From Trypanosoma brucei (taxonomy: Eukaryota): a stretch of 64,000 nucleotides of DNA. The translations under genes and the position numbers were made by a program. The DNA lies in NCBI GenBank assembly GCA_000002445.1, contig CM000207.1:1024001-1088000 (forward strand), given 5' to 3'. The notes beneath the pieces are model-generated. The model was not told the DNA's origin and did no database searches. It was given only the letters and a program-made list of their open reading frames with translations. Positions 37,471 to 60,865 of this stretch are shown in pieces; position 1 is the stretch's first letter; every line of letters begins with the position of its first letter.

Positions 37471-40400
37471 GGGGGGCACTTCAGTGATTGGACACGAGCG
37501 AACGATGGGTCACGCAGAGTGGAAAAAAGATGGCGCCAGTAGTATAATTACATGACAACGACAAAATGTCGAAAACTTAACCGTTAGGAAGAGACCCCAC
37601 AGGAACGTCCCCGTAGGACGACGTACTGGAAAACTCTGACCGCCTTTTCGCCTACCGCGTTGCTAACCGATACACAGTAAGTAATCGTTTTCCGAAAGAG
37701 AAATAGCATCCTGCCTTTAGGTCATACATCATTTTCAGAGCCCTGGTTTTACCTCGTCAACTCTTGGAGGGCAAACCGTCACGGTTATCAAGCGCAGGTG
37801 AAGACCTATGTGTTCCACGCCTGCAAAAACACAAAAGAAAATGAGAGGTATAAGTGTGCTCAGAATTTAACACGCCCCCGGGGACCGTCGGATGCAACCA
37901 CAGACGACAAAGGGACACACCGAGCTGCAAGGCTCTTCGCGGTTTCCTCAAATTGGGATAGGTCCCTGGGTGCGTCGAAGCTTCCCATCTTCCCTGGATC
38001 GCACCCCTCCCTCCCACACACACCACCCACAGTTCCGCTTTTCAGATGGGAAACCCCCTTACCCCATCTTCCTTCATACCGTGTTCAGCCGTAACGACGT
38101 TTATAATTTAAACAGCAAAGCATATAATTGTACTCGAAGTGTTTCCATTTTTTGACGTTCTCTCAGGACAAGAAAAAATTTAGTGTGCAGCGGCGTGGAA
38201 GCAACAGGGTCTCGCATTGTATCTCGTGCGGCGTGGGAAGAGAAAGCCCGCAGAGGTGGGGATTAGAGACGGCATATAGTGAGTGTTGGCGGATTCGGGA
38301 AGACCGTCTGTCGCTGGTTATCCGAAATGTGTCTGCACATCTAAACACGGCGGTGCAGACGCCTTGTTTTCGTCTTAGTGTTTTGTTTGGCGGGTAACGT
38401 TATCTAGGAGAAGACAGGTTCAAGCTTACTCTGAAAGGCAACACGATAAGTAGGGATCTTCGACTTTTTTGACCCCCGAAAACGATAATACTCTAGGAAG
38501 AGATGAAGAAACGGTAGGATTACATGTGCTTTGGAGATTTTCATCTTTTTTTTAGGGGATCTGACGAGGGGAATGACCAAACTTTGCCCATTTTCATGTG
38601 AAATCCAACAATCCATCATGATTCTTGTCTTCATCTCATGCTTCAGAAGGGCGTCACAAAAAGTATGTCTTTGAAACTAGGAGTAGGTTGAAGGCAATGT
38701 TAACCACAAGACCTCAGCGACCCTTCATGGGTGGACAACTGGTGGCAAGACCCATAAGTTCTCACAGTGTTCGTCAGACGGAGTGATCAGATACCATTTT
38801 CTTTTGACTGGAAACCACACTTTGGTACGTAACTCAATTGTACCGAGGGCACCTTAACTATGGAACAAACAAAACTCATGATGCATCCTGAAGGTGGTAC
38901 CAAAACTAACTTTTGTTCTTTACGATACTTCACGTGCCTTTCACCAAGCCGAAGACTGAGGGCTTCCACAGGGCATTTGACGATGCACGAGTGACCCTTC
39001 GGAATGAATGGCTGAAGTTGGATGAAAGGCAAATCAATTATGCATCAGCAGTGTGTGATGGCCCATGCATATCTGGTCGGAGAAATTTAAAGATCCAACA
39101 AAAAGCATACTTGCAAACATTGGGTTCAAGGGGTCGCATGAATCAGCTTCGGCAGCACATCAACGTACTGGGGCTGCAGATAAAGCAGATGCAAGCTCAA
39201 ACGGATCGGGTGAAGGTGTCGCTTGCCCGGAAGTGGAAACAGGCTGGACCTCTTTCCAGCCGCACAAGGCGTCAGCGATAGGGCCGTATGGAGCATTATA
39301 GCACAACTCGTTATGCACTCGTGCCCAATGGCATGCTCAAACAACGAAACCGATAGCGACCGTTGTGGCGGTGAACACCCCAGGTGACACGAAAGTATTG
39401 GAATCTACACTAAGTGAGTGGAAAGGGTGTACCGCGTTTCCAACGAGCTGAAACCCCCTCCGCGGAAAGGCGCCAACACGTTACCCCGTCATGCGGGTTA
39501 TGAAAGAGATGTTTCCCTCGCTCAACACAAGGAAGACCCCACAAGGGGATTGGAAGGGTCTCTTAGGTAAGGCTATGTCACACTTGAAAACTTCAGAAAA
39601 CGAGGTATCAATAAGCAGTACCGGCCCACGATCCCTATGTTGCGGCATTGGCTTCAGAAGCAATTCACATCACCAAGAGTGTATGGACACAAACGAGTTG
39701 GGAACAAAGTGTTTCCATAATGCGGGGATTTTGCAATTCCTTAACAAAGAATAATCCATAGCCTCGGGAAGAAAATGCTTCTTTGCGTATTGTAAGCTAA
39801 TAATTGGCCAGGGGCGGTGCGGTGTGATATACCAGAACCTTATTGACGTTGCTAGCCACAGTAAAATCATCAGTTCATATGTTTTTAGCCGGCCCTCAAA
39901 GGAAGGCGGCCGCAAGCCACACAAAACGAGTTCACCCCATGGAAAGCTTGGGAATTGGATCTTATCGGCGAGTTGTTAACTCTAGAAAACGATCGGGTGG
40001 ACCAACGACCCGTCTGAGTGACAGTCAGTTGATGGATGGAAATCGCGTTGCCCAAAAAAGAAATTTTCATCCCTCACCCTCGAAAAAAGGGCGCTCTGAT
40101 TGTGGATTGGAGGGCCCAGCCGAAGACGCACAAGCCCAACTCACACATAGAGCGGTATGGTATGTGGTGATCGGGGGAGAAGATGCACAAGGGGTAAAAG
40201 CTGTAATCAAGAGCATGGGGGAGGGGGAACGGCTCTCAGTGCCAACCGTGAGGGAAACGGAAAGCGCTCTCCGACTATGCGGCACGACGGGGCATCCCAT
40301 ACAAGAGGCGCGCTAGCGCATGCAATTGCAGCGGTGATCGAAGGCGGTCTCAACACCCGATTGGCGGTGCAGTTATGGGAAACACGCGAACCCTCTAGAG

Positions 40401-43400
40401 TTGCCATGAAAAAACACAGATCGCCGCATAGGGTCTCGGATAGCCCTAGAAGGCAAGTCCGCTCACCTGACACCATATATGTGGTAGAAGCGGTAAGGAA
40501 AATGGGCAAATTCACCGTGGATAGTTCCGATCAGAGGACATGATAGGGGGCAACTCTTCCAATGGCATTGCACCGAACGACGCACTCACCGTGCACGGGT
40601 GGAAGATAAAGACGACGAACGAAGGCCGCTGGCACAGCATGTGAACGTGGACATTCCATCCTTGAACTGAGTCCTGAGTCGACTAAAATCAAAGGAGCCT
40701 GAAAGGTTTGGGGTGCAGTGTGGAACGTTAGGAAACAACCAAATATCTCGAGGAAAGAGCGAGGAGGAAGGAGGGGCCCTTTGAGGACAACAAATGCGGA
40801 TGCTCAAACAATGAAACAGGCGGGAGTTGCTTAAACTGCATCGAGGTTACCAACCATGGGGTGAGTGGCGCCTTTTGCTATCGCTGGGGAGAAACTGTTG
40901 GGGTCGCGGCGGCGTTTCATAGCCTGGTCAAAATCAAAAAATGAACAGGAAGACTGCGGGACGAGGGTTTCTTTGGGTTACATTTCCCTGTAATTTGGGG
41001 GCAGTTTGTATTAAAATCACTGCCATTTCTTCGTTTGAAGGAGGTTATTTTCCAAGTAACTTTTCCAGAAACGCAGAAATTTCCGTTGTCGCGTCGGAAA
41101 ATAATCCTGTGGATGGCGGCTCACGCGGGGTGAAGGTCTCACCGCCGGACATAGCGAAGGGGACTGTGGGAGGCAGATTAGGGGTGCTTTCAGTACCTCC
41201 TTTTCGCCCGTTTAAAAGCCACTAGCCTCCTTATAATCTAAAGTTAGGATTTTCAATAAGGACCCTCAACAATGCAAATGATGGATATGATGGTCGCAAC
41301 GGAAGTTCGATATGAGTTTTTTTTGTTCCAACACACTCCTTACTTAACAAAGAGGTGGGGTATAGACTATTCTATGGAAATAAGTTAATCGCAGCTAACA
41401 AGGATGTGGCCAGCCCTTCCGCTTCAGCCATCTTGCACCGTTTGGACATGATCATGAAAAGACGGTCGCATGCCCAAAGGCGGGCCAAGGGAGCATCGTG
41501 GTAAAACATGATGTATTCTAAGATATCACCCCCTTGCTTCCCTTTCCGCAACTACTTAGGAAATAGGGCCATTCATCGGATCTTTCATTCGGTGTCGAGT
41601 AGGTTGCCAAATGTTTTCATGCGAAAGCGAAACATTGATCCTTTGTGACTAAAAGCCTCCCCTAATAACCACACCGTAGTATGAAGGTTAGACGGCGGCC
41701 GTTTGACGGTTCTCTGCCGAATGTTTCACGGAATCTCACGTCATATGTGGGAAACTATGTCACTGATTTTGCCTTTAAAAAAAAATGATATGATGGAATA
41801 CTTCTTTATTATTTATTTAATTGCTGCTCAATTTATGTAAACCTTCTCAATCTTTCAATGCATATTTTTCTCGATCCCCCACCATTCCCGTGCTTAGAGG
41901 AAAACGATACTATTTCCCGTGGTAATTTACTTCGTCGTTCCGTGAGCATTTGTTCCCTACCCCAAACAAGCCACTTGTTTCCACATATTTGAACAACAGG
42001 CCCCAATAATCCTTCCAATATTTCCACTGAACTACCGCCCTAACTCTTTTACCTTACACACAATCGGCAACAAAAAAAAACATCTTTCAACGAACTTTTC
42101 TCTGCGTACCAAGAGGTCCGTGGATTGGTGACGGCCCGCCTGCACGGGGCTGCGGGCCCTAAATCATTGCTCAGCCGTTAACGGACCTGCTGCGGGCGAG
42201 ATGGCGCGCTGTTGCCATGGCACTTTCCCTGGACCCACAGCTCGCCAAGCAGGTGGCAGCCACTTGTCCGCTCCCGACCCAGCAAGCCGCTAAACAGTAA
42301 TGTCACGCTGGGGCGGCTGTTATCATCGCGACCTCAGTGCTCTCATTTTTTTTTTCCGCGTCGGTACCCACGCAGGTGGATGAACCCTCCCAGGAGGGTT
42401 TTTACCTGTTGGAAGGGTGAACCTCCTCTGAAATTTTCTTTAAATTTTGCTGTGCGCATACGCTACTACGAAGAAATGCGAAGGAAAGTCAGAAGGGGAA
42501 AGCGGAGGCTGAAGCGTTGAATGGTAAAAAAAAAACATAAAGAGAACAGATATTATTAAAGTGGAAGGTCACAGTTTGAAGTTTGCAATAACAACGAGTG
42601 TCAGCAGCAGCCGGCAGCAGGAATGAAGAAATATTTAGAGAAGTGTTTGTCGTGGGGGGAGAAGGCCGAAGGAGGAAGCGCCTGAGCTTTTTATTGAGTC
42701 TGATACTGTAAATATCAGTGTTCTGCTTTCTTCCCCATCAATTTTTCATTCCTAAACATTGGTTTGCTGGCCTTTTCTCGGTGAAACGAAACTGCGAGGT
42801 GGGCGCTTTTCATTTGTCTTCAAGTTTCCCCCTTACAAAGCTCCTCAACAGTTGGTCTTATTCTGGAACGACCTTACAGTTTAGCCATCTCTATTCCCCA
42901 GCACCCTCTCCCAGTACAACACATGACCCTTTCTTTCCCCCTCTTTCGTCCCGCGCGCATCTCAAATCTACCCTCCGCGTTGTCCAATATATGTGGAAAG
43001 ATGCTCAGTGTCCTGCTGCACGGTTTCTTTTATGTTTCGGACAAGGTTTGCACTAATTTTCCAAAGTTTCCTATCCACGCCCTTTTTGAGGTCCACAGGC
43101 ATCACACATTTTCCCCACTTCTCCTCTAGATCCTCCCCAAGGACCAATGTTTCCCTCCTTCCTGGTACTCTCGAAAACCAACTGACCTCCCTCCATCAGA
43201 CCATTTCAATATTCAAAGCACATCCTCCGATAACTCCCAGCACTGCTGAAAAACACTCCTGAACCACCCAGTCGAAAAATAATCACAATTAAAAACGGCC
43301 CCTTTATCCCCCGAATTTGCTTTATATACAGCGCTTCGAACTCTTTTGTACCGCCTTTCCCATGGCGATGTCAATCATATCCACGTTGCGGCATGGCCCG

Positions 43401-44253
43401 CCACTCCGCTCAGGTGATGAAAGGCAAGCACCCGCATCTTATTCCGTTGGAGTGGATCGCGGCGGAAGGGCTTCAGCACCACACCAAAGCTTAGACTATG
43501 ACAAATGCGCTACACAGCAGGCGCCATCATAGGAGGGTCCCTGGGCACGTTCTGACTTCCCGCAAACGGTGCCATCCGCAGGAAAATGCTGGGCAGTGCA
43601 GACGTCAATTAGAATCCCGGGTGCTTTTTTTTTCGGTATAAATTGGAACGTTGCTGCGCTCTTAAACGAAGTGAGCAGCACCCGTCACCGCGTTGCCTTC
43701 AGCCGCGATGCAAAGAGAGATATACCTATTCCGATCCCTGAAGATATCCTTCTGGAGGTGAACTTCTCGAAGGGTTCATTACACGATCATTTCCATTTTG
43801 CGGTATGTCCCATACAAATACTCGAACTAACACAAGCCTCCGCTTTTCCCCTCGTCGAAAAGGAGGGTACGCCAGAGAAAAACTTGACGATCTCCTTCAG
43901 GATGGTCCACGAGTATTTGGTGACGATCCCAACTTTCATTCTCTTGTGCCATAGATGTCTCCCCCTATGCGGTGGAAGTGGCTTCACAGCTCGACTAAAC
44001 GCAGAAAATAAAAACACCGCCGGAAAGACCCACGAAACTGTGTGTTAAGACTTGGGCCAGGGGCGCTGGTCCCACATACGGTGTAATTTCTTGAAAAGAC
44101 TGTTTTGTTGCGAAAAGGAGCCCTCAACCCACGGCGTAAAGCTGCCGTTCGATCATATTCTTCCACGGCCACGTCGGGTCGGACGAGCCGCTATTTTCAC
44201 TGCAAATATCCTTACAAGCATCGCATCAGCGGAAATACCATAACTTGTGGGAA

Positions 44254-44805
44254 CTAGAACTCGCCACGCAGGGGAAAACTGAGACGATTAAGGAAGAGGG
44301 ACATATCCACAGTCACGACGACGCGCTTGCAATCATAGTTTGCGAGGCGCCGATCGCCGCAGTCTGGCAGGTAGAACAATATCCATAAACCTTTCCCCAT
44401 GGACAAAGAGGTGGCTGAAATGGAAAATAAGATTAATAACACCACGGAAAACACTGAACGGAATCGTCCTGTAACGCAGGGTCGACCGCATTTATTACCG
44501 TGCTCGATTCCCAACGTTGTCGAAACAAGTTCTTCAAAATGAGCATATCTGACAAGAAAAGCCTGAAACGTCAGCAGGCGAGTTGTAGCCTGCTCAGTGG
44601 AAACCTCGGCATGAGGATCGCACTGCACGAGAGAAGAATAGGAGCATTTTCCTTGTAACTTCGACCACTTCTGGAGGGTCAAATTCTGATCTGTCCTGCT
44701 TCCCGAGCGGCACTCACCATCACAAGGATGATAGAAGAATTTTGTGAGAGCACCTGACAACTGATTGACCAGTGAAAGTACCAGAAGTAATTTAAAAAAC
44801 GTCAT
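44254..44805 (-). CDS. Candidate minus-strand gene: 183-aa protein with an N-terminal signal peptide, 8 Cys and an internal hydrophobic segment
   Basis: The only sizable minus-strand ORF not overlapping a + strand gene. Starts MTFFKLLLVLSLVNQLSGA. On the minus strand, about 75 nt upstream of the ATG, there is a T11 tract followed by AG dinucleotides (seen on the + strand as 'gcaaaaaaaaaaacg' at ~44863-44877). Confidence 0.4.
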   Translation of the reverse strand: MTFFKLLLVLSLVNQLSGALTKFFYHPCDGECRSGSRTDQNLTLQKWSKLQGKCSYSSLVQCDPHAEVSTEQATTRLLTFQAFLVRYAHFEELVSTTLGIEHGNKCGRPCVTGRFRSVFSVVLLILFSISATSLSMGKGLWILFYLPDCGDRRLANYDCKRVVVTVDMSLFLNRLSFPLRGEF

Positions 44806-47730
44806 CCTCTTTAATGCCTATTCCGGAGCATCTCATACAGTGGCCCAACGCGGAGGGTAGTGCAAAAAAAAAAACGTAAAGTTGGTGGAGAAACCCGCCC
44901 GCCCTCCGTCCAACCTCCTTTCAAACAGTGCTAAAGGCGGCACGATACTTAAGCAAACCACTTTCCTAACGGAAATAACTCAAAAGAAAATGGGCAAATG
45001 GCACAGCACCAGGCCCCCTCCACTGTTAGTAAGCGCAGCGAACTTCCTTCCCACTTTGAGGGAGCGTCGCAAGAGATAATATCCAACCCCGACTTGGCAT
45101 CTTCGAAAGCGGCCTGGCGATAAGGAGAGGAAATGAAGATGTGTCTTCAGAAGGGACTGAATATTGCAGCCGTTATAGGAATCCGCATTTACTCCGGCAG
45201 ATTGATCATGAACAAAACAGGGTGTGTGGTGCTCGGGGGACGTTTTGATCTCACAGTTGCGCCGGCAGTCGCTGGCAACCGCTTCAAAATGAGCTTTTCT
45301 TCCCTTCGCTCAAATATTGATGATCTTTTGTTTGTTTTACCTCCTCTCACAAATGAAGAACACGGTGGTGAACGCAAACTGGCGTTGCCACTCTCCATTA
45401 CTCCAAGCATGCATCGCACAAATACACGCGCACAGCTTGTGTATATACGATATCGCGTGATCATGCAGGGCTTTTCAAATATCAGCGACACACCATTGAT
45501 ATTCATGCCTTCTTAACTCTTTTTCACCCAATCTATCATTCCACATCATTTCTCCCACTAGAACACAATGGTATGGAGTAATAATGTGAGGTGAAGCACA
45601 TACATATGATGTGAGAAGGAGAGGTGTGACACTGTAGTGTTTCATCCGAAGGAAGAGTTAACAAATAACATATACAGTAGCCACACCTCCCATATTGTGC
45701 ACATAATGCCTCATGGTATATTATTAGTATGTACAGGGGAAAACTATGTCGATATATTATAACAAACCTTCACAGCCACAAAATATACGGTTTGCATTAT
45801 TCTCACATTTCTAGAAAAGCGGCAAACACAAAGGAGCTTATTATCATATTCCTATAAATTCCCCATACGTGTGCAAGCTGTCCCCTCAGCATATAATATA
45901 TTGTGATATGGTGAACATAACCCCCCACCAGTGCGACAAATATGGGATCTATGTAAATATAAATAAATATACACTTGCCTCTTGGACATATTGGATGTCA
46001 TATACAACAGCATTTGAGTTGTATTCTCTGTTAGGCCAACTTATGTATATATAATAGAGTGAGGCCTTTCCAGACTGTGATGAAATGAGTTGGTGTGTAT
46101 TAATGACAACTCTCCCAAGGCATACGGAAGAGATACTATTTCCCCTGAGGGCTGCCGAATCTTTCCTCTGGAACTTTGCCCTGGGGGCTCCGATGCATTT
46201 TGACGCCCTAAGGGATCCAGCAGCGCATTTTCGTTCTGAACCGGCAATGTCCACACTTCAGCGATGCTGGTGGGCTGCGTCCATACTTCGTCCTATGCAG
46301 CCTCCTTTCGTGAGATGGCCTCGCATTTCGACTCGGCTCCGTTTTGCAAGATTCCCGCCTCCCCGCAAACCTCCAGTACACGATGAAAGTTGAGGCATTT
46401 CTTTTTCCCATTGAACATTCAACTTCCGCGCGTGGCACTGCACCGCCAAGACTTCAGTCGCTTACTAGATGCAAGTCCATTCGTGTCATTCCAATATGCC
46501 GGTAACCATGGAGAAATGGTCATTCCACTTTCCAAAACCCTCACGTACGTGCGTTTTACTTCTGATGGAGGAGAAAATAAAAGAGTTACTGCGTCCTCAA
46601 CAATCATATTTACGAAGTAACAATGCCTCGCTATCCGATGAACGACCACCCGCATTCCGTTAGTCTCTTTAGGAAATGGCATTTGGGTTCTTATTGATAA
46701 GCAACAACAAAACACATTTGCATGCATTTATATTCGAAAGGATGCGTGCGCGAGGTTACTTTACCCGACTTATGTTATTTGTCGATGCCGTTTCGATATA
46801 ACAAAAAAAAAGGAGGTTGGCTCTTTTTCTGAGTTCTAGGCAAGGTGCTCGACGCTGACACATTGGTGAGGCAAGTGCCGAACTGTGGAAAGACTATGGT
46901 TTGATCAGCGAATTGCTGCGGGGGATGCGGCGGTGGTTGGCACGGGCTCGTGTTGCTGTCGCCTGAAACGTTCTCTGCGATGTCACCGCCGGTATGAGTT
47001 TGTTGTGGTCGGGATGCTCGGATGCCGATTCTTTGTGGGCTTTGAGAAAGAACGTTTTGATTCCCCACCGCTGGTAACCAGGGATGGGTGTCACGTCTAG
47101 TATCTGATTGTGGTAGGAAGTGGAACAATAGAAATGTAGGTTAGTGGTTTCCCAATCGGGCTGGTAACAGGCTCAAATTGTTTAAAAAAATCAGTTTGTG
47201 AGGTAGACTACCGGTGTGAATAGGGGAGTTCTTCCGCATTTGACTTCTTTGACTGCTTGCTGATCTTACGTTCTACGTACCTTTTCCAAGAAACTGAAAG
47301 AGGGATCGGTGCCCTTACTATGCAGAAGAGGTATTGTTGGGCATCTGCTATTCGCCTTAGTGTTTGTGATTTTATCATTTAAGAAATTGGTGCATTGCTC
47401 AGTAGCGCCTGAAGTGTGTGTGGGGATTAGTTGATACTGTAACGAAGAAAATCGTTTTTGTTATTTCGTGAGCATTACAGCTTTTTATTTTTAAAGGTAG
47501 AAGTTCTTTTCAACCTCTTTGGAGTGCCGGATACAGTATGAATGACTACTAATTGAGGGTTGATTCCTGCGTTGCCTTCCTAACAAAATGCTTTCCAGCA
47601 CTTCATCTACTGTTTCATTTGTTAGTAACTCTTTTTTGGTTTTTGTGACCCTGATTATTCATGAGGGAGATGAGGGGTAGTGAATTACGTGGTTGTGTTG
47701 CTGTGTTTAGGCAAATGTACGTGACTCGAG

Positions 47731-47768
47731 TGTATGTATGTATGTATGCATGCATGTATGTATGTATG

Positions 47769-47802
<34 letters not shown>

Positions 47803-47803
47803 G
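47731..47803. repeat. Compound (GTAT)n-(GCAT)2-(GTAT)n-(TA)n-(GT)n microsatellite
   Basis: tgtatgtatgtatgtatgcatgcatgtatgtatgtatgtatatatatatatatatatgtgtgtgtgtgtgtgg read directly. Confidence 0.9.
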
Positions 47804-48511
47804 TGTTCTCTTAAGAATGTGTACCTACACCACACGCGTTGTACATAGAGTTAGATGTGGAATTACATTGTATTGGTGCGATCATATCACTCAGCACCGT
47901 TGTTTTTGTTCGTATTTCATTTGTCTGATTGCTTTATTACATATTTCCCTATTGATGTGTTATCAAGGGGCATACAAGGTTATGTCTGTGTCGCTTTGGC
48001 GGACATTTTACCGCGAAGCGGAGCATAGTTGAAGTGAATGTGGCGCGCTAATAACCTGAGATATGTTACTATTGTTGGTACGGTGCGTGGTAGATTGTTG
48101 CGTCACATTCCCACCGTTGTTTGGATGGAATGCCCATGCACGTGATATTTGCGGCTCCTTTCCTCCTTTTTTAACATAATGATTTTTATGGCAGCGGAGG
48201 GTCCTTGCAGCATTGCCATTTGACGTGTTGCACGCAGACCCTTCAGAGTAAAGGACCGTTTGTTAATTGACGACGGGCTATGCGAGGTGCAGTGCTACTT
48301 TCTCTACAAGGACAAAGGACGTGTGTGCGTGTGATATTTAGTTCTTTCATTTTAATTGCATTTCCCCTTGACTAACGTTATTTGATGGCACGCCCCCTGC
48401 AAAGCACGATATACAACAAAAAATTTTCTTATCTGCAGCAGTGAAAAGTTTTTATTTTTTCTGATCCATTTGACTTTTAGTATAAAGGGCAAGGTAAAGT
48501 TTGGTTACCCG

Positions 48512-48513
<2 letters not shown>

Positions 48514-48540
<27 letters not shown>
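48514..48540. repeat. (GT)13 microsatellite
   Basis: tgtgtgtgtgtgtgtgtgtgtgtgtgt read directly. Confidence 0.9.
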
Positions 48541-48543
<3 letters not shown>

Positions 48544-50968
48544 CATTGGTTTGTTGAACTCAAGGGATTTTCAAAGTTTTGTTTAGAGATCTTTTTTTAG
48601 TTACTACGAAGATATTTAATTTTCCCAGTCCTTTACGGCTCATTTATAGATAAGATGCTTTGTGTAACTTCAGCTATATTTCTTTTGGACAGAATAAAAA
48701 ATAGCTGCGTACATTCCACTCTTTCCCACAATATAAGGCACGTCACTTTTTATATTCGCACGATATGCCGTCTCTGTTTCCCAACACATGTGCTTAGTTT
48801 CACCGACTCAGCTGAACGCTACGGTTTGGTTTGGTTGTGCGTCCTACTTGGTTGTCATCTCTTCCTGTTTTCGTTTATAACTAAGGAATACACAGAAGGA
48901 TGGACTAGAACTCAAAACGCTTTGTGCCGTCCGTCAAATAGATAGATGCCTCTCGCAACGCCCTAAGTTCTTGATGCCTTGTGAAAGGCCAATGAAGGTA
49001 TTAACACAGAAACTTCAATGCAGGAACCAAGGGAAGAATGGAGATAAGTTGGTACTGGAGAGATGTTTTTCGTGTTGTCTTTTTGTTACCTTCGTCTGAT
49101 GCGTTCACAGTGGTTTGGGTATTATTAATGGCGTACCCTGTAGCTTCTGGTATTTTTGGCTGCGTCAGTCGGCCAAAGTTTCAAGTTTTTTTTAAAATAT
49201 TTGGATACCAAACGGACAACGTAAGGTGGCTGGAGCATAAACAAAAACACTCTATTATTCACAACGCTCTTTCTTTCGGTTTTCGAACCAACTGGAGGAT
49301 AACGAATGCTGTACCGGTGACGCAGTGTCGCGGGCAATGCAATGGACCTAAAAAGCACTGAGTACCAAGGTTACTAGCTGACCACTTGTTAGGGGTGTGG
49401 GTTCGTCTCCCATGTGGCGCTTTCCTCTCCCGGGGAATGGCAGCACGTTAAAGGACTACAAGTGCTGACCATTGAAAGTAAATGACACGAAGGCGAAATC
49501 AAACAGGATGCGGTAGCATCATCTCCATGTCCACGCACCATGAAATTTGGAGAAGCGATGTAAAGTTGTATCATTCTTTTATTGGCTCCAGCGCACGTGT
49601 CTTACATGTTGGATGCTTTGGTGTATGTTTCCCATGAGGTGACACATTCGTCGACCTCACGGGACCTTTCGTGTTGTTTATACCACCAATCACCACAATA
49701 GGAAGAAAAAGCAATCATCTTCATGTGAACCAATGGCCGTGCGACTAAGTAAAAGCTTAGCCGTGTATGGAAGATGCCACCTTCATTTCTTGTCGTGTAG
49801 TGACAACATCAATGATTACTATATGTGTTCTGTTTCATCTTCCACCGCAATGATCGCTTTTACGATTCCCGCTTATGCGGGTGGATTGCATGTATGTTTT
49901 GATGAGGTGATGTTTGATCCTATTCGTTTGAATCACTTATGATCGCAGGTTCAAGATGTTCGATACATTTGCCAATGGGAGATGACACAGCACCCTCTTC
50001 TATTGATCATTATGGTCCATAATTGGCGTGTATTCCCTTTCTTTTTCCCTTTCTTTTTTTTTTTGCAAAAAAAAAAAGGAAGCTCATGTGAACTATGCAA
50101 CACCCACTGTCTCGTGGAGGGGCTCTAAATTCTATGTTCTTAGTAACAATCAATTCTTTGCCTTCCCCCAAGGTGTCGGTGAAAGGTTGACACCAGCTAT
50201 CGTCTTTAGTGTGTTGTCCGCCACGGGAAATGCTGCAAGTGGAAGGTGTTATGCCGTTTAGCTTGGACGACACCATTGGGTGATTTTCAGGTATGAAACT
50301 TACGACTCATTAGTCGTTACATGGAGTGTAAAACGGATGAATGTACCTGCCGTTTTGCCCCACACGGACCGTTGCAAAAGGCACAAGACACATGTTCGGC
50401 ACTCCAGCAGTTTGAAATGGGGGTGACACTTCGGAAGACATGCCGTCCTCAGAGTTTTTTTTTGTAGGAACGAATGGAGAGGCTTTTGAGTGTTGGGAAA
50501 ACACGGGATAGTCTTCGAAGGAGGAGTTACTGAAAGTCAGTAGGTGGTGGTGTGCCCTCTTGCTCTCAGCGCACTTTACCGATTCCAGTGTTAAGCAACA
50601 TTATGGCAAGCCCTGATTATTGGAGCAATTCTGGGGAGGCTCGACCTGCGGGTGTCTCCTCGGAAGTTGCTATGCCAGTTATCACTTCCTCTGTAGAATA
50701 TAATGTTTATGGTTATTGTTGGTCTATGGAACTATGTCTGTTGTTTGTGTGGAGTATATGCTGGTCGCAACTTTTTTTTGCTTTTGTGTGTGCGTGTGCG
50801 GATCACTGCTGTTGAATGTGCTCACCTTCATTTTCCCTACAGCAAACTGCTGATCCGACATCTGATTTTGTCTTTTCCCCCATCGAAAACATTTACATAT
50901 CTGTCGGCATTTCTTTATAAATTAAATATTCGGCATAGTTTGCGCGTTTCGTATCCATTTGGTGAGTG

Positions 50969-51415
50969 ATGTCTCGAGTGTACGTTGGTAACATTGAAAA
51001 ACGTGCAACAAAAAAGGAACTACTTGAGTTCCTGAAACCAATGGAGGAACATATCGAGGACTCGTGGTTAGCTCGGCGACCTCCGGGGTTCGCCTTCATC
51101 ACAATTGCTCCGTCTCGTGCGTGTGAATTCGTGGAGACTTTCAACGGAAAGGAGTTTCGTGGAAAGGCTCTTTTGGTTGAGCTGTCCACAATGTCGTCAC
51201 AGCGGAAGGACGGAGAGAACCGCCGCCGCCGAAGCAGTGATAGCAGACGTGATAGCAGTCGACGCAGGAGGAGGTCTGGAAGCCGCTCAAGGCACAGTGA
51301 TAGACGGCGCGACCGGAGTCGCAGCCGCAGTCACCGGCGGGACCATTCAAGAGACAGAAAGCGCCGTTGCCGCTCACGCAGCCGTAGTAGCTCTCAGGGG
51401 CCTTGTTCCCCGTGA
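50969..51415 (+). CDS. SR protein with one RRM and a C-terminal RS domain (SRSF3/SRSF7-like)
   Basis: The ORF track begins at GTG 50966; ATG at 50969. RNP2 VYVGNI, RNP1 PGFAFITI, and WLARRPPGFAF...LVELS is collinear with SRSF3/7. The C-terminus is RS/RD dipeptide-rich (RRRRRSGSRSRHSDRRRDRSRSRSHRRD). Confidence 0.85.
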   Translation: MSRVYVGNIEKRATKKELLEFLKPMEEHIEDSWLARRPPGFAFITIAPSRACEFVETFNGKEFRGKALLVELSTMSSQRKDGENRRRRSSDSRRDSSRRRRRSGSRSRHSDRRRDRSRSRSHRRDHSRDRKRRCRSRSRSSSQGPCSP

Positions 51416-51741: not shown

Positions 51742-51758
51742 AACAACTCTTGTTAAGA

Positions 51759-53714
51759 ATGGAAGGAAAAAATGAGAGAGACCAATACCAGGATTTGGCA
51801 CTCCACTTGAGTTTCTCATCTGGTACAGAGTTGAGCGATTCATATGTAATGTCCTATAGGGGCAGCGATGGGTGTTTTGGCGATGCTGTGTTCAATGGTG
51901 CCGCACCCGCTCGGAACGTCCTCTTTGGGAACATTCCATGCAAACAAAGAGTGGAAAAGTTTAGTATTCAGGATAGCAGCTTAGCGAATCGGTGTAACAT
52001 GCAGGTAAACTTAAAGCGTGACACACCCGTTCTTCAAGACCCTTCGGACACATTTGCAAGGATGAATCAAGTGATGCACCAAACTTTGAAGTATGTAAAG
52101 GAGGTGGAAAGTATTGATTTTAGTAGCAGTAACATAATAGATTTCAACGGTGAAATCATGGAGGACCCAAGGAGAGTGTTTCTTTCGGTATGCACCAGTG
52201 TGTTTGCTAACTTCTCGTTCTGCTCTCAGTTAGATGTAGAAAAACTTCTGAGTTTTCTATCAGATATTTTCGAGAACTATTCTGAAGACAATGCTTATCA
52301 CAACGCGGTCCACGCGGCTGACTCGGTTCAAATGTTGTACCTCATATTGAGGGAGAAACCTGCAATCCTGTTATTTACCAACGAGGAGATTCTTGTTTGC
52401 TTTTTGGCTACGCTTTGTTTGTCATTCATACACCCAGGTGTAACAGACGCGTTTCTGGCACGCATTGACCACCCGCTAACCCTTGTTTACGGTGACGTTA
52501 CAACCCAGAGGTCAGCAAGCCTTACGGCCTTCCTCTACTTCCTTAATAGAGAGGAGAACCGTTTCATAGATCTGTCCTCCAGCGCTGGCACTCGTCCCAT
52601 TTCCCAATATTTGAGGGAGTTGTTGGTTGAAACGGTTCTGGCAACTGCTCCTCGATCCCGTAGGACGCTGCTGAGTGATCTTCAGGATGTGGCGGCGTCT
52701 AATGTGGTATCGGTGGATGACCTTAGGTTCCTGCTCTCAGCGATTGTGACTCTATCGGATAGTGCGCTAGCATTGCGCCCGCGGGCACAATTTATCAGCT
52801 GGTCGCGGCTACTTTGTGCTGAGTGGCTGAGCGAGGCAACTCAAGAAGAGAGGAGAAGGATGGACCCACTCGTGCCGAACCTCCAAAAGCGAGTCGGTGA
52901 AGGTGGACTCACGATGGTATCGGATTACTGCCGGGTGTGGCTACGACCTGTGGCTGCTGCGACCCGTGCACTGGTTCCGCAGGACCTTTACGACAATTTG
53001 GAGCGAAACAGTGATGTCCCCACTTTTGGTGAAGTTGCAGCCTTCTCTGTGCCGGATGTTTCGGCTGATAAGCCATGGAGTGATGGAAGTTTATCTGTTT
53101 TTGAGATTCTTCGCAAGGTGACTATGCATGCAAAGTCTTTGGACCGAAAGGCCTCAAAGCGTGCCATTCTCAACGCAACATGTGGGCGTCTGGTATCGGC
53201 CCCCGCGTCGCAATTGTCATCACCGTTCCATGCACCTTCTGAACCGTCGATTTCGTGCTCTCCGGTGGAGAAATTGGTTTCTCATCCAAGCCGGTGCGAG
53301 CATTACTTCTCGTTTTTGCGGCTTTACGACACTTACGACAGAGAGGGCCGTCCCGCAACCGAGTTTGCAGAGCAGCTAGTTTTTTTAGCGATGCAGCTGA
53401 ATCCTGATTATGTTGGGCGTTACGCTCGCGAGGGCATAGATGCGTCTTCTAAGGAGGACTGCAGCAAGATTGCGTCCCTTATTATCCAAAGTGAAGAGGC
53501 ACCATCCACCGCGGAGGTGATAGCATCCCCATTGCGCGGGGCTGAGCAGACCGATGGCTTCATTTTGCGTTTGATGGAGATGTACACCGAACGCGACAGA
53601 AACAGAAATAATTGCTCCGTCCAGAATAGCCACACAAACCTTCAGTCGACTTCGAGGTGCCTCTTGCCTTGCTCCAACCCCGTATACGGGGGTATGGACC
53701 GTGGAAGAAAGTAG
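51759..53714 (+). CDS. Class I cyclic-nucleotide phosphodiesterase-like protein with a degenerate catalytic site (predicted non-catalytic PDE homologue)
   Basis: The track start is TTG 51750; ATG at 51759. YHNAVHAADSVQ (52296-) matches the PDEase_I YHN..HAADV.Q motif. At the HD..H position the protein has LSFIHPG (L-S at 52419-52424) instead of HDVDHPG, and YGDVTTQRS replaces YND..LENHH. Confidence 0.8.
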   Translation: MEGKNERDQYQDLALHLSFSSGTELSDSYVMSYRGSDGCFGDAVFNGAAPARNVLFGNIPCKQRVEKFSIQDSSLANRCNMQVNLKRDTPVLQDPSDTFARMNQVMHQTLKYVKEVESIDFSSSNIIDFNGEIMEDPRRVFLSVCTSVFANFSFCSQLDVEKLLSFLSDIFENYSEDNAYHNAVHAADSVQMLYLILREKPAILLFTNEEILVCFLATLCLSFIHPGVTDAFLARIDHPLTLVYGDVTTQRSASLTAFLYFLNREENRFIDLSSSAGTRPISQYLRELLVETVLATAPRSRRTLLSDLQDVAASNVVSVDDLRFLLSAIVTLSDSALALRPRAQFISWSRLLCAEWLSEATQEERRRMDPLVPNLQKRVGEGGLTMVSDYCRVWLRPVAAATRALVPQDLYDNLERNSDVPTFGEVAAFSVPDVSADKPWSDGSLSVFEILRKVTMHAKSLDRKASKRAILNATCGRLVSAPASQLSSPFHAPSEPSISCSPVEKLVSHPSRCEHYFSFLRLYDTYDREGRPATEFAEQLVFLAMQLNPDYVGRYAREGIDASSKEDCSKIASLIIQSEEAPSTAEVIASPLRGAEQTDGFILRLMEMYTERDRNRNNCSVQNSHTNLQSTSRCLLPCSNPVYGGMDRGRK

Positions 53715-55950: not shown

Positions 55951-57039
55951 ATGACACCAACAGTAACCCCTCTACAGTTACCTAAGAGGGAGGGAGTGAA
56001 GCCCTTTCCCGATGCACCGTTAGGAGGAGCGGCCGTAGAGCCGCATGCACTGCCTCCAAAGCCAAGAACCCGGGCTTCCAGCGTAAACGATGGGAGGAAA
56101 AAGACGACCAGCTACCCTTCGTACATGAATCCACTGAAGCTCCCCACGAAAGCTATCGTCTGGACAAACAAGCCCCCAGTTAAGCCCAACAAAATTTCCG
56201 TGTCACTTGAAAACTTTGAGGATGCTCCGAGAATCAAAGGTGTTTTTAACAGTCCTCGAAGCCTCAAGGCGTGTGAGATCGCAGTCGTTGATCCACGCAA
56301 CCTGCTAAAGCGCCCTCTCTCTCACTTTGAAGGAAAGGGTGTCCCCGAAACCCTTGCGCAGATGCGGCACACATACTACGAAAACAGAAGGAAAACTAAA
56401 TTGGAGGAAGTGCGCCGGATTCGTGACGGACTACCTGTTGAGGTTCCTCAGGAAAAAGAGGATGAACAAACTAACGTCAATGGGCGAACCCCCTCAGTCA
56501 ATAATGGTCATCGGGCCCCACTACTAAGGGAGAGAAGTCCCCCACCAATGGTCCGCCAGAGAACGCCTATGCGTCGCTCTACGTCCTTTGGTTTCTGTTC
56601 TCGCAGCAGCAGCAGCGCTCCATATAAGGTTGGAGGGGAGAAACCTTATCCTCCCTCACGAAGAACCACGTTGCACGGCGCTGACGGGCGTTCCCCGTCA
56701 GTGGGCGCCCTGAAGGTTCTGAATCGCGCGATGAGTGAGAACCGTTCCCTCTCCGCCGCGGATTACGACATGCTAAGGCGCATTGAGGAGCGTGAGGAAA
56801 GAGCAAACGAGGCCAGGCAACGTGCGGAGGAGATGGAGGCGGCCCGTGAAAGGGAGTTGCTAGAGAGAGGGCTCCGGAAAGAACTTCACGGAATCAATAA
56901 GCTCATCGAGAGGGAAAACGAGAGGATCAGCGCCGTGCAGATGCGCCGGCAGAAACTGGAAATGCGGTTGCAGCAAGCGCGTGAGCGCCAGAAGCGGAGC
57001 GAAGAGGAACGTCTCGGCCAGTGGAACGCTAAGCGCTAG
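55951..57039 (+). CDS. Hypothetical basic protein (362 aa) with a C-terminal Arg/Glu-rich predicted coiled coil
   Basis: The track start is GTG 55909; the first ATG is at 55951, after 'caattttttttcatag'. The C-terminus ERANEARQRAEEMEAARERELLERGLRKELHGINKLIERENERISAVQMRRQKLEMRLQQARERQKR has a heptad-like pattern. Confidence 0.65.
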   Translation: MTPTVTPLQLPKREGVKPFPDAPLGGAAVEPHALPPKPRTRASSVNDGRKKTTSYPSYMNPLKLPTKAIVWTNKPPVKPNKISVSLENFEDAPRIKGVFNSPRSLKACEIAVVDPRNLLKRPLSHFEGKGVPETLAQMRHTYYENRRKTKLEEVRRIRDGLPVEVPQEKEDEQTNVNGRTPSVNNGHRAPLLRERSPPPMVRQRTPMRRSTSFGFCSRSSSSAPYKVGGEKPYPPSRRTTLHGADGRSPSVGALKVLNRAMSENRSLSAADYDMLRRIEEREERANEARQRAEEMEAARERELLERGLRKELHGINKLIERENERISAVQMRRQKLEMRLQQARERQKRSEEERLGQWNAKR

Positions 57040-57757
57040 TGCCTTTGTGGAACAGAAATTTTGATGCAAAAGGGAAGGAAAGAAAGTGGTAGCAGTTAAG
57101 GGATTGGGGAGGAGAGACTGTAGCTGATTAGTTATAAAAATATGATGAGGAAAATAAATAAACGTGCATATGTAGTTTTCCTTTCTTTGTTCCACTCTGC
57201 CCCATTTGTTGTGGTATTTTTAGCGCGCACTTTAGCGTCTGTTGTTCCTAACGTTGTCACTAGCTCGCTCCATATTCGTGTTCACGAGTATGTTGCCTTT
57301 CATTCGTGCATGACGAGCAAGCAAATTAGTTGCCAATAAGTGACGTGGTGCCGAATGTACAAATCCCCCTAAGAAAAAGGGCACCGAAGGATAAAAACAG
57401 GAGGGGAGGAGAAGGGGTAAAGTGTGAATGGCTGATTTTATTGTACGATTTCCCCTTTTTTTTATTTTTTCCTGCCTTATAATCCTAGGGCATAACGCCA
57501 GCGGAGTAATTTTGATACATCGGTACACTTCTATACACGTGCGTACGCACATACAGGGAAAGAGGGGTGAGGGCGTTATGAGAGGCTGGAAGGGTAGGGA
57601 TAGTTACGCTACCACTGCGTGCATTTGTTATGTGCTTTGGCCGTTTTTCCCCAAGTCCTTTGACGTACGAACCCTGACCCCTCTTTTCTCTCTTACCTCT
57701 TTATCCTCATTTGCACTTTTTTTTTTGCTTCAAAAATGTGTACCACCCTTTAGAGCA

Positions 57758-58579
57758 ATGTCTTCGGCTAACTCGGAGGTACGTAACGGTGGTTCATCTT
57801 CAGTTGCCGCCGCGCAACCCCGTGCGGCATCGCCCGCGAAGATCCCCGTGAAGGTACCCTACTCACTTGCCAAAGTTCCAATGCCGCGGCTTGTACCGGC
57901 GAAGATGCCGGCACCAAAGCGAGCAGCTGAGAGCGAGGCTCAACATCGCGGCAACAGGGAAGACAGTGACGACGCTCTGCTTGAGTCCTCCGCACCCTCT
58001 AAAAAACCAAAGAAGGAGGAGTCAAAAAAGGCTCCTCTAGTGGAAACGGAGTCTAGCAGTAGCAGCGAGTACAGTTCTTCTGACAGCGATGATACCGATG
58101 CTAGTGACAGCGAAAGCGAGGGCTCGAAAACGTCTACAGTTTCCGATTCAAGTGACATTTCGGACGACGAAGAAAGCGTTTCTGAGGACAATCTGACATT
58201 TTTTGAATTAGCCGAGAGAAGCGGCCTCATGAATGATATCAAGAATAAGGTAAACTCTGGGGAAGGGGAACAGGAGGAGGAGGAGGAGGTGCACATCGAC
58301 GGGAAGCCACCACGGCCCAAGTTTCTTCGTAGCTTTCCTCGCGATATTGAGGCGGAAATCGGGAAACACGAGAAACGCCTCAAGGATGTTGAGAATATGT
58401 TAAAAATGAAACAGGATAATAAAACTGTTTCGTTGGGCACAAGTAAGGTAAATTATATAGACCCACGGATTGTGTGCTCCTGGGCCAACGAGAACAACGT
58501 CCCCATTTCGAGGCTGTTTTCTGCGACACTTCAAAAAAAGTTCCCTTGGGCACTGAAGGCAAGGGACTTTACGTTTTGA
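57758..58579 (+). CDS. TOP1S: DNA topoisomerase IB small (catalytic-tyrosine) subunit of the kinetoplastid heterodimeric TOP1
   Basis: The C-terminus LGTSKVNYIDPRIVCSWANENNVPISRLFSATLQKKFPWAL is collinear with the human TOP1 C-terminal domain [42 protein letters not shown], including SKxxY (Tyr codon 58454-58456). The ~270-aa size and Ser/Asp-rich N-terminal half fit the trypanosomatid two-subunit enzyme. The in-frame ATG at 57758 (MSSANSE...) is chosen over the track start 57428, which lies in a hydrophobic pyrimidine-rich stretch. Confidence 0.85.
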   Translation: MSSANSEVRNGGSSSVAAAQPRAASPAKIPVKVPYSLAKVPMPRLVPAKMPAPKRAAESEAQHRGNREDSDDALLESSAPSKKPKKEESKKAPLVETESSSSSEYSSSDSDDTDASDSESEGSKTSTVSDSSDISDDEESVSEDNLTFFELAERSGLMNDIKNKVNSGEGEQEEEEEVHIDGKPPRPKFLRSFPRDIEAEIGKHEKRLKDVENMLKMKQDNKTVSLGTSKVNYIDPRIVCSWANENNVPISRLFSATLQKKFPWALKARDFTF

Positions 58580-59842: not shown

Positions 59843-60865
59843 ATGAACTCCCCTCACGACTCGGGGCGCTCATCCGCAACGAGTACGGCGCATTCTGTGG
59901 GTTCATTGGGCGATAGCGGTGGGGCACAAAAAGATCATTCTAATCCGCTCCCTGAGAAGGAAGATGAGGAGGGCGTAGCATGGGATGAAAGGCTCAGGTA
60001 CTTTGTTGGCGTTGTGAAAAGTGCGTTCGATGCCATGAGGTCAGAGCAGCGGCTATGCAATGGCTCTGTTTGCTCCAAGCGGTTGCAGGATCGAATAGAG
60101 TGGGACTACCCAGCTGAATATGCCACATTTGTCAACGGTTTGTTCAACCGTTCGTGGGACCGTTTCCTTGAGGCAAAAACAGATATTGTCTGCTATCCCC
60201 ACAATGAAGGCGGTGCGGAGTCCAACACCAAGTGGTTGATGGCCCATGGTTCTCTGCGTTGTCGACTGCGGACAGAGGATATAAACCGCGTTCGGGATGC
60301 AGATGAAATGCTGGGGCGAATGGTTCGCGACAAGTGCTTGTGGGATCTGGAGGATGCCTGTCGCTCTATCCTTATGGAGGTGTTTCTCTCCATGGATGCC
60401 TCTGCCATTGTGTGTAAGGGGTGCATGCGACTGAACAAGAGTGAACAGTACCATCTTGGGAGTTTGGCGGTGTGGGAGCCCATCCTTGCAAGGTTATGGG
60501 GCCGGCAAACTGTTGGTGGTGCTGTGCGACTTCGTGACATGGAGCGCCCTTCCCAGCAGCTGGGGTTTCACGTCCGGCTGAGGTGCCGCTGGACGGAGCT
60601 TCTAGGGAACAATCTTCTCGCAAAATGCATATGTGGATCTGTTCTCCGCGTTTTTCTTAATGTTGAAAAGCCAGAAATGCTCCCTGTCGCGGGTGCCGGC
60701 GCAAGGCCTGCGAAGGAGGAGTTGGCGGTGAAACTACATCAGCCGTCTGGCGAATTGATTGTGGCTCTAGGCGACACTGGTTTATGGGGCCGCCGGCCTC
60801 CGTCCTCCCAGCCGAATCCCCCCTTTTTGGCCTGTTGCAGGGGATACCCGCGTCACACGAGATAG
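59843..60865 (+). CDS. Hypothetical protein (340 aa)
   Basis: ATG at 59843, downstream of a polyY tract (attattattattatttttctggttcatgcatctttctcttctctgaactctttcctttaag). No recognisable domain; all antisense ORFs are short. Confidence 0.65.
   Translation: MNSPHDSGRSSATSTAHSVGSLGDSGGAQKDHSNPLPEKEDEEGVAWDERLRYFVGVVKSAFDAMRSEQRLCNGSVCSKRLQDRIEWDYPAEYATFVNGLFNRSWDRFLEAKTDIVCYPHNEGGAESNTKWLMAHGSLRCRLRTEDINRVRDADEMLGRMVRDKCLWDLEDACRSILMEVFLSMDASAIVCKGCMRLNKSEQYHLGSLAVWEPILARLWGRQTVGGAVRLRDMERPSQQLGFHVRLRCRWTELLGNNLLAKCICGSVLRVFLNVEKPEMLPVAGAGARPAKEELAVKLHQPSGELIVALGDTGLWGRRPPSSQPNPPFLACCRGYPRHTR

Follow-up and report, generated by a model that had tools for sequence, protein, structure and literature searches.

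Bisubunit type IB topoisomerases of trypanosomatids

The type IB DNA topoisomerases of Trypanosoma brucei and Leishmania are described in PMC3155505, PMC2063514, PMC2492870, and PMC4266802 as heterodimers in which the small subunit gives the nucleophilic tyrosine; according to the same papers, purification, activity assays, and RNAi have verified the split enzyme, and both subunits are essential. For T. brucei, an active, camptothecin-sensitive heterodimer is credited to Bodley 2003 and Bakshi and Shapiro 2004, as cited in PMC3155505, PMC2063514, and PMC2492870. The genes for the small and the large subunit are located on different chromosomes, with the large subunit gene Tb927.4.1330 on chromosome 4 (PMC4266802, PMC3155505), and the small subunit of T. 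brucei is assigned to Tb927.9.6940 next to Tb927.4.1330 for the large one (PMC4266802, Table 1). The split has been regarded as a feature of kinetoplastids or trypanosomatids only (PMC3155505, PMC4266802). Being essential and structurally unlike the host enzyme, the split topoisomerase is a validated parasite-specific drug target.

The small subunit of Leishmania donovani, LdTopIS (262 aa, Tyr222, chain B of structure 2B9S), has been studied by truncation. Its first 169 aa, including a Ser tract equivalent to the one discussed below, could be removed without loss of subunit interaction, relaxation, cleavage, or camptothecin sensitivity in yeast, while truncation to Asn210 abolished both interaction and activity (PMC2063514). 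A motif containing RPPVV (aa 171–183) was required (PMC2063514), and the Leishmania counterpart of the PPRPxxxRSF motif was reported to be needed for activity and camptothecin sensitivity (PMC2063514, PMC3759442). Furthermore, NLS2 (PPPKVRRVES, aa 88–97), an experimentally defined signal at the start of the Ser cluster, depends on one Ser behind it, and NLS3 (aa 219–246) surrounds the catalytic Tyr (PMC3759442). Phosphorylation of the Ser tract, with a possible control of turnover after camptothecin, was also proposed earlier (PMC2063514, PMC4266802).

According to published work on both parasites, the T. brucei small subunit (TOP1S) pairs with the separately encoded product of Tb927.4.1330, from which the catalytic Arg-Lys-Arg-His residues and the DNA clamp come. 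Tyr233 of TOP1S then attacks the phosphodiester to form a 3'-phosphotyrosyl intermediate, with controlled rotation and religation to follow.

Gene structure and start codon

The window, i.e., the complete 64-kb stretch of T. brucei DNA that was analysed, contains an 822-nt open reading frame (ORF) on the forward strand, read from ATG at 57758 to TGA at 58577–58579 and encoding 273 aa plus the stop codon, which represents the TOP1S CDS (57758–58579, Tb927.9.6940 allele). The calculated mass of the encoded protein, 29,968 Da, equals the 29.968 kDa given for Tb927.9.6940 in the supplement of PMC6907760, which also lists the protein as detected in the T. brucei proteome with six peptides and a coverage of 25.6%. 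The same 822-nt/273-aa gene call is repeated in about four to five other assemblies of the T. brucei group.

Directly 5' of the ATG, a candidate trans-splice acceptor region (57680–57755, forward strand) was identified, in which a 52-nt polypyrimidine tract (57680–57731) is followed by AG dinucleotides (57752–57755). Judged by its sequence, the region is laid out as is customary for trans-splice acceptors of trypanosomatids and may act as one. This polypyrimidine/AG signal favours the start at 57758 over an in-frame ATG further upstream (57428). The frame is open all the way from 57428 to 58579, so that translation from the upstream ATG would yield a product of 383 aa with a hydrophobic N-terminal extension, a reading to which we give next to no likelihood. 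The additional 110 aa are translated pyrimidine-rich DNA (FPLFFIFSCLIIL..., LFSLTSLSSFALFFLL) including the polypyrimidine tract and the AG itself, homologues are all 200–291 aa in length and align from the Met at 57758, and gene calls in about five assemblies use the 273-aa form; the upstream start was ruled out by these homologue lengths, the polypyrimidine/AG signal, and the gene calls together.

Identification of the small subunit

The ORF is almost certainly TOP1S (Tb927.9.6940), which in the T. brucei group encodes the small subunit of the heterodimeric nuclear type IB DNA topoisomerase, and no observation speaks against this identity. A Pfam search revealed PF14370 (Topo_C_assoc) at aa 205–273 (58370–58576, forward strand) with E=3.7e-28 and a score of 97.7 bits, where the curated gathering cut-off is 25.1, covering positions 1–70 of the 70 of the profile, and at this E-value the match is therefore not due to chance. 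PF14370 was the only domain in TOP1S at E≤1, and the core domains PF02919 (Topoisom_I_N) and PF01028 (Topoisom_I) were not found; likewise, no ORF of the TopIB core type was detected near TOP1S within the 64-kb window. Comparison with solved structures gave chain B of the L. donovani enzyme (2b9s_B) as the best match (E=2.8e-25, aa 212–273), and human Top1 chains were matched with E~1e-11 over TOP1S aa 200–270 against residues 690–760 (chain positions 516–586 of the 175–765 construct). In these alignments, Tyr233 is in register with human Tyr723 and with L. donovani Tyr222 (position 22 of 2b9s_B).

The annotated TopIB small subunit of T. b. gambiense DAL972 (P0001), also 273 aa in length, is the same gene and is identical at 272 of 273 positions, the sole difference being A4V, with the window stemming from another strain of the T. 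brucei group, and exactly the TOP1S protein is encoded in assembly GCA_001457755.2 and in one further contig of >1 Mb (Trypanozoon). Furthermore, TOP1S was used as query against 5.8 billion proteins. This search returned fused TopIBs (PF02919+PF01028+PF14370) from other eukaryotes, but from Trypanosoma, Leishmania, and their relatives only short proteins, in every case of 200–291 aa and with PF14370 as the only domain; a fused TopIB from trypanosomatids was not among the proteins returned. A full-length alignment of TOP1S with the Leishmania infantum protein and others was obtained, and the first ~182 aa of TOP1S gave no alignment with the core regions of fused TopIBs.

Thus, the earlier note, which had taken the ORF for the SKxxY-carrying small subunit of a two-subunit type IB topoisomerase, was right: PF14370 as the only domain, the match to 2b9s_B, and the 272/273 identity to the gambiense protein all bear this out, and the Tyr of SKxxY, for which it had suggested an alignment to Leishmania and T. 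brucei TOP1S, is present and aligned with the catalytic Tyr. The gene is already characterised and there is nothing new in its identity; the call made from the raw window is a correct annotation without any gain over the state of knowledge reached in 2003. A pseudogene or an inactive paralogue was rejected, as every invariant residue is in place, most differences to T. b. gambiense are synonymous, and mass spectrometry has detected the protein.

In comparison to LdTopIS, the same order of elements was found, namely basic patch, Ser cluster, PPRPxxxRSF motif, linker helix, and SKxNY domain, with 69% identity over the crystallised fragment and about 41–51% overall. Differences were detected in the Ser tract, which has another sequence and length, and in the motifs PPRPKFL and SKVNY of T. 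brucei, which correspond to PPRPPVV and SKINY in Leishmania. Human TOP1 is homologous over TOP1S aa 200–270 (residues ~690–765), with the tyrosine of SKxNY (Tyr723) in register; while this segment is fused to the core in a single chain of 765 aa in the human enzyme, it is a separate product with its own disordered N-terminal extension in T. brucei.

Catalytic C-terminal part

The active-site signature SKVNY was located at aa 229–233 (58442–58456, forward strand) with the codon TAT of the catalytic Tyr233 at 58454–58456, as read from the sequence before. S229, K230, N232, and Y233 are invariant both in an alignment of TOP1S with 14 kinetoplastid orthologues (A1) and in the alignment that includes the euglenozoan proteins described below (A2). 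The catalytic domain (aa 224–273) carries the invariant motifs SK.NYIDPRI and KKF.WA; these and PPRP are unchanged in every orthologue returned from Trypanosoma, Leishmania, Leptomonas, Phytomonas, and Bodo.

Upstream of this domain lies a long predicted helix (aa 197–223, 58346–58426, forward strand) with the highest pLDDT of the AlphaFold model, which we infer to be equivalent to the C-terminal (second) helix of the Top1 linker domain in the human enzyme. This helix follows the motif PPRPKFLRSFPRD (aa 184–196, 58307–58345, forward strand), equivalent to PPRPPVVRSFE of Leishmania, so that the conserved PPRPxxxRSFP motif is present 5' of the linker helix in the form PPRPKFLRSFP (aa 184–194). 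The true counterpart of the Top1 linker is this motif together with the helix (aa 184–223), downstream of the Ser/Asp tract. P184, P185, R186, P187, and F193 are invariant in A1. T. brucei deviates at positions 188–190, with PPRPKFLRSFP as compared to PPRPP[VI]x[RK]xF in every other aligned kinetoplastid; having PPRPKFL instead of PPRPP[VI], its motif therefore allows only an inexact transfer from Leishmania at this level.

In regard to the predicted structure, the AlphaFold model has a mean pLDDT of 56.8, and before aa 145 the values are below 50–60 and secondary structure is lacking. A Foldseek search of the model against the PDB again gave 2b9s_B as the best match; owing to the largely disordered model, this match is weak (E=1.6e-3), and it adds nothing beyond the sequence match.

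N-terminal extension

The first ~182 aa form a low-complexity extension that is predicted to be disordered and can be divided into four parts, namely a basic head, a basic patch, the Ser/Asp tract, and a Glu run. The head (aa 1–65) is rich in Pro and Ala, has a net charge of +7, and encloses the conserved motif PAKIPVKVPY (aa 26–35, 57833–57862, forward strand), of which P26 and K32 are nearly invariant in A1. The basic patch SKKPKKEESKKA (aa 80–91, 57995–58030, forward strand) directly precedes the Ser cluster and, by the columns of A1, appears to be the positional equivalent of Leishmania NLS2; it may thus serve as an NLS in T. brucei as well. Behind the Ser/Asp tract, a second conserved motif starting with LTFFELAERSGL (aa 146–157) extends over aa 146–165 (58193–58252, forward strand), in which T147, F149, A152, G156, and L157 are invariant or nearly so in A1 and two short helices (148–154 and 159–165) are predicted by AlphaFold. 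It is followed by the run EGEQEEEEE (aa 169–177, 58262–58288, forward strand) with E176 and E177 conserved in A1, in agreement with the E-rich runs that had been noticed after the Ser cluster. PAKIPVKVPY and LTFFELAERSGL are kept across kinetoplastids although they lie inside an extension that is dispensable for the activity of the Leishmania enzyme. Altogether, aa 1–~182 of T. brucei would correspond to this dispensable Leishmania extension, aa 80–91 to NLS2, and aa 184–196 to the essential motif, as far as the aligned positions suggest.

Acidic Ser/Asp tract

The Ser/Asp/Glu-rich acidic tract SSSSSEYSSSDSDDTDASDSESEGSKTSTVSDSSDISDDEESVSED (aa 99–144, 58052–58189, forward strand) consists of 20 S, 3 T, 10 D, and 6 E among 46 residues, with a net charge of −16 for aa 98–145 and of −24 for aa 98–182, and displays low pLDDT without secondary structure in the AlphaFold model. 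The tract that the earlier note had seen is hence real; its placement as an acidic 'N-terminal half' is loose, as it covers 36–53% of the protein length. The dense cluster of CK2-type sites claimed for it was also found, in that eight minimal S/T-x-x-D/E sites lie within the tract, while the best 46-aa window in 2000 shuffles of the protein had 3.7 on average and at most 7. The count for the whole protein, however, was 9 against a shuffle mean of 9.1, and the cluster therefore reflects local composition and not an additional enrichment of the motif. Every aligned trypanosomatid keeps the composition of the tract at the same place but varies in its sequence and length; Bodo saltans has no such tract (A1). 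Two T. brucei phosphoproteome supplements were inspected, of which one holds a protein-level entry for TOP1S with no phosphosite among the entries listed and the other holds no entry.

The role of the tract has already been raised in the literature. It is most likely a disordered acidic segment, probably phosphorylated, that lies outside the catalytic and subunit-docking machinery. Auxiliary roles are the most likely ones for it. The tract may supplement or modulate the basic NLS patch next to it and may contribute to protein stability, turnover, or regulation; the 'regulatory' part of the earlier reading appears plausible.

Two other readings were weighed against such an auxiliary segment, which ranks first. 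The tract could be a functionless low-complexity spacer that arose from compositional drift or slippage and is tolerated since the enzyme does not need the extension, an explanation that we regard as possible though rather unlikely. It would agree with the missing positional sequence conservation, the variable length among trypanosomatids, and the absence of the tract in Bodo saltans, with a CK2-motif density that is accounted for by composition alone, with the dispensability of the equivalent Leishmania region in yeast (PMC2063514), and with a Leishmania fragment in which the acidic DDDSSSDD part was examined apart from NLS2 (PMC3759442). However, a Ser/acid-rich tract is kept at the same position in every aligned trypanosomatid, and similar tracts, N- or C-terminal, were found in the stand-alone small subunits that occur in euglenids, a diplonemid, and a prokinetoplastid; this recurrence across lineages suggests selection on composition. 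In addition, the function of Leishmania NLS2 needs at least one Ser after the basic patch (PMC3759442).

Still less probable, and in our view doubtful, is an interaction linker, an option that had been put forward before. Here, the negative charge of the tract would bind the large subunit at its Lys-rich C-terminal extension and so hold the heterodimer together. The charge of −24 over aa 98–182 would fit such an electrostatic contact, and the Leishmania large subunit has a C-terminal extension of high pI that is rich in Lys and for which an ionic contact with the small subunit was suggested (PMC2063514). Because the N-terminal 169 aa are dispensable in Leishmania, the linker is nevertheless not favoured: LdTopIS without them keeps interaction, relaxation, and cleavage, and interaction was lost only at Asn210 (PMC2063514). 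Moreover, the active crystallised complex contains only a C-terminal fragment of the small subunit (2b9s_B). An auxiliary acidic segment thus remains the preferred reading, ahead of the neutral spacer and, after that, of an electrostatic glue between the subunits.

Stand-alone small subunits in other Euglenozoa

The search of 5.8 billion proteins also revealed complete small ORFs of 175–303 aa with PF14370 as their only domain beyond the trypanosomatids (P0044, P0046, P0047, P0048, P0049, and P0050). By cluster assignment, their carriers are the euglenids Entosiphon sulcatum, Euglena longa, Urceolus cornutus, and Chasmostoma nieuportense, the diplonemid Namystynia karyoxenos, and the prokinetoplastid Apiculatamorpha spiralis; this set is made up of transcriptome ORFs only and covers the small-subunit side only. 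All have a KPKRPxxxFPxD motif, a linker helix, and SKxNY in common, and their N-terminal parts are Ser/acid-rich, of low complexity, and do not align to TopIB cores (A2). The ORFs of the euglenids and the diplonemid additionally carry an acidic Ser-rich C-terminal tail.

Judging from these sequences, TopIB may have been split into a core and a stand-alone tyrosine subunit as early as the common ancestor of Euglenozoa, and the fission would then not be a kinetoplastid speciality; we consider this possibility evenly balanced. No link of the topoisomerase IB split to diplonemids or Euglenozoa was found in the literature searched. If true, a split throughout Euglenozoa would refine the timing of the fission and contradict the statements that restrict it to kinetoplastids, and the Ser/acid tract, as a recurring and probably phospho-regulated element of the small subunit, would have been under selection since ancient times instead of arising by drift.

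Strain divergence and genomic neighbourhood

Over 15.5 kb, the DNA of the window was 99.1–99.2% identical to two chromosome-9 assemblies of the T. brucei group. Compared to T. b. gambiense and related assemblies (L001–L004), the CDS displayed six nucleotide differences, five of them synonymous and one leading to A4V, which amounts to 0.73% (0.7% for the T. b. gambiense allele), while the flanking intergenic DNA diverged by 2.0–2.6% from the same assemblies. This lower divergence of the CDS is consistent with purifying selection that would include the Ser/Asp tract.

Rfam and tandem-repeat scans of the window revealed nothing. Within the otherwise dense forward-strand gene array, about 13 kb (37500–50900) are without an ORF of ≥200 aa, and this region gave no Rfam match, no tandem repeat, and no Pfam match for its ORF fragments. 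The immediate neighbours of TOP1S (55951–57039 and 59843–60865) had no Pfam match. Further upstream, we identified a small RRM protein with an Arg/Ser-rich tail (50966–51415, PF00076, E=1.4e-5) and a 654-aa protein with a cyclic-nucleotide phosphodiesterase domain (51750–53714, PF00233, E=6.1e-23). The TOP1S gene of T. b. gambiense has the same neighbours, namely the RRM protein, the PDEase_I protein, and hypothetical proteins of 362 and 340 aa.
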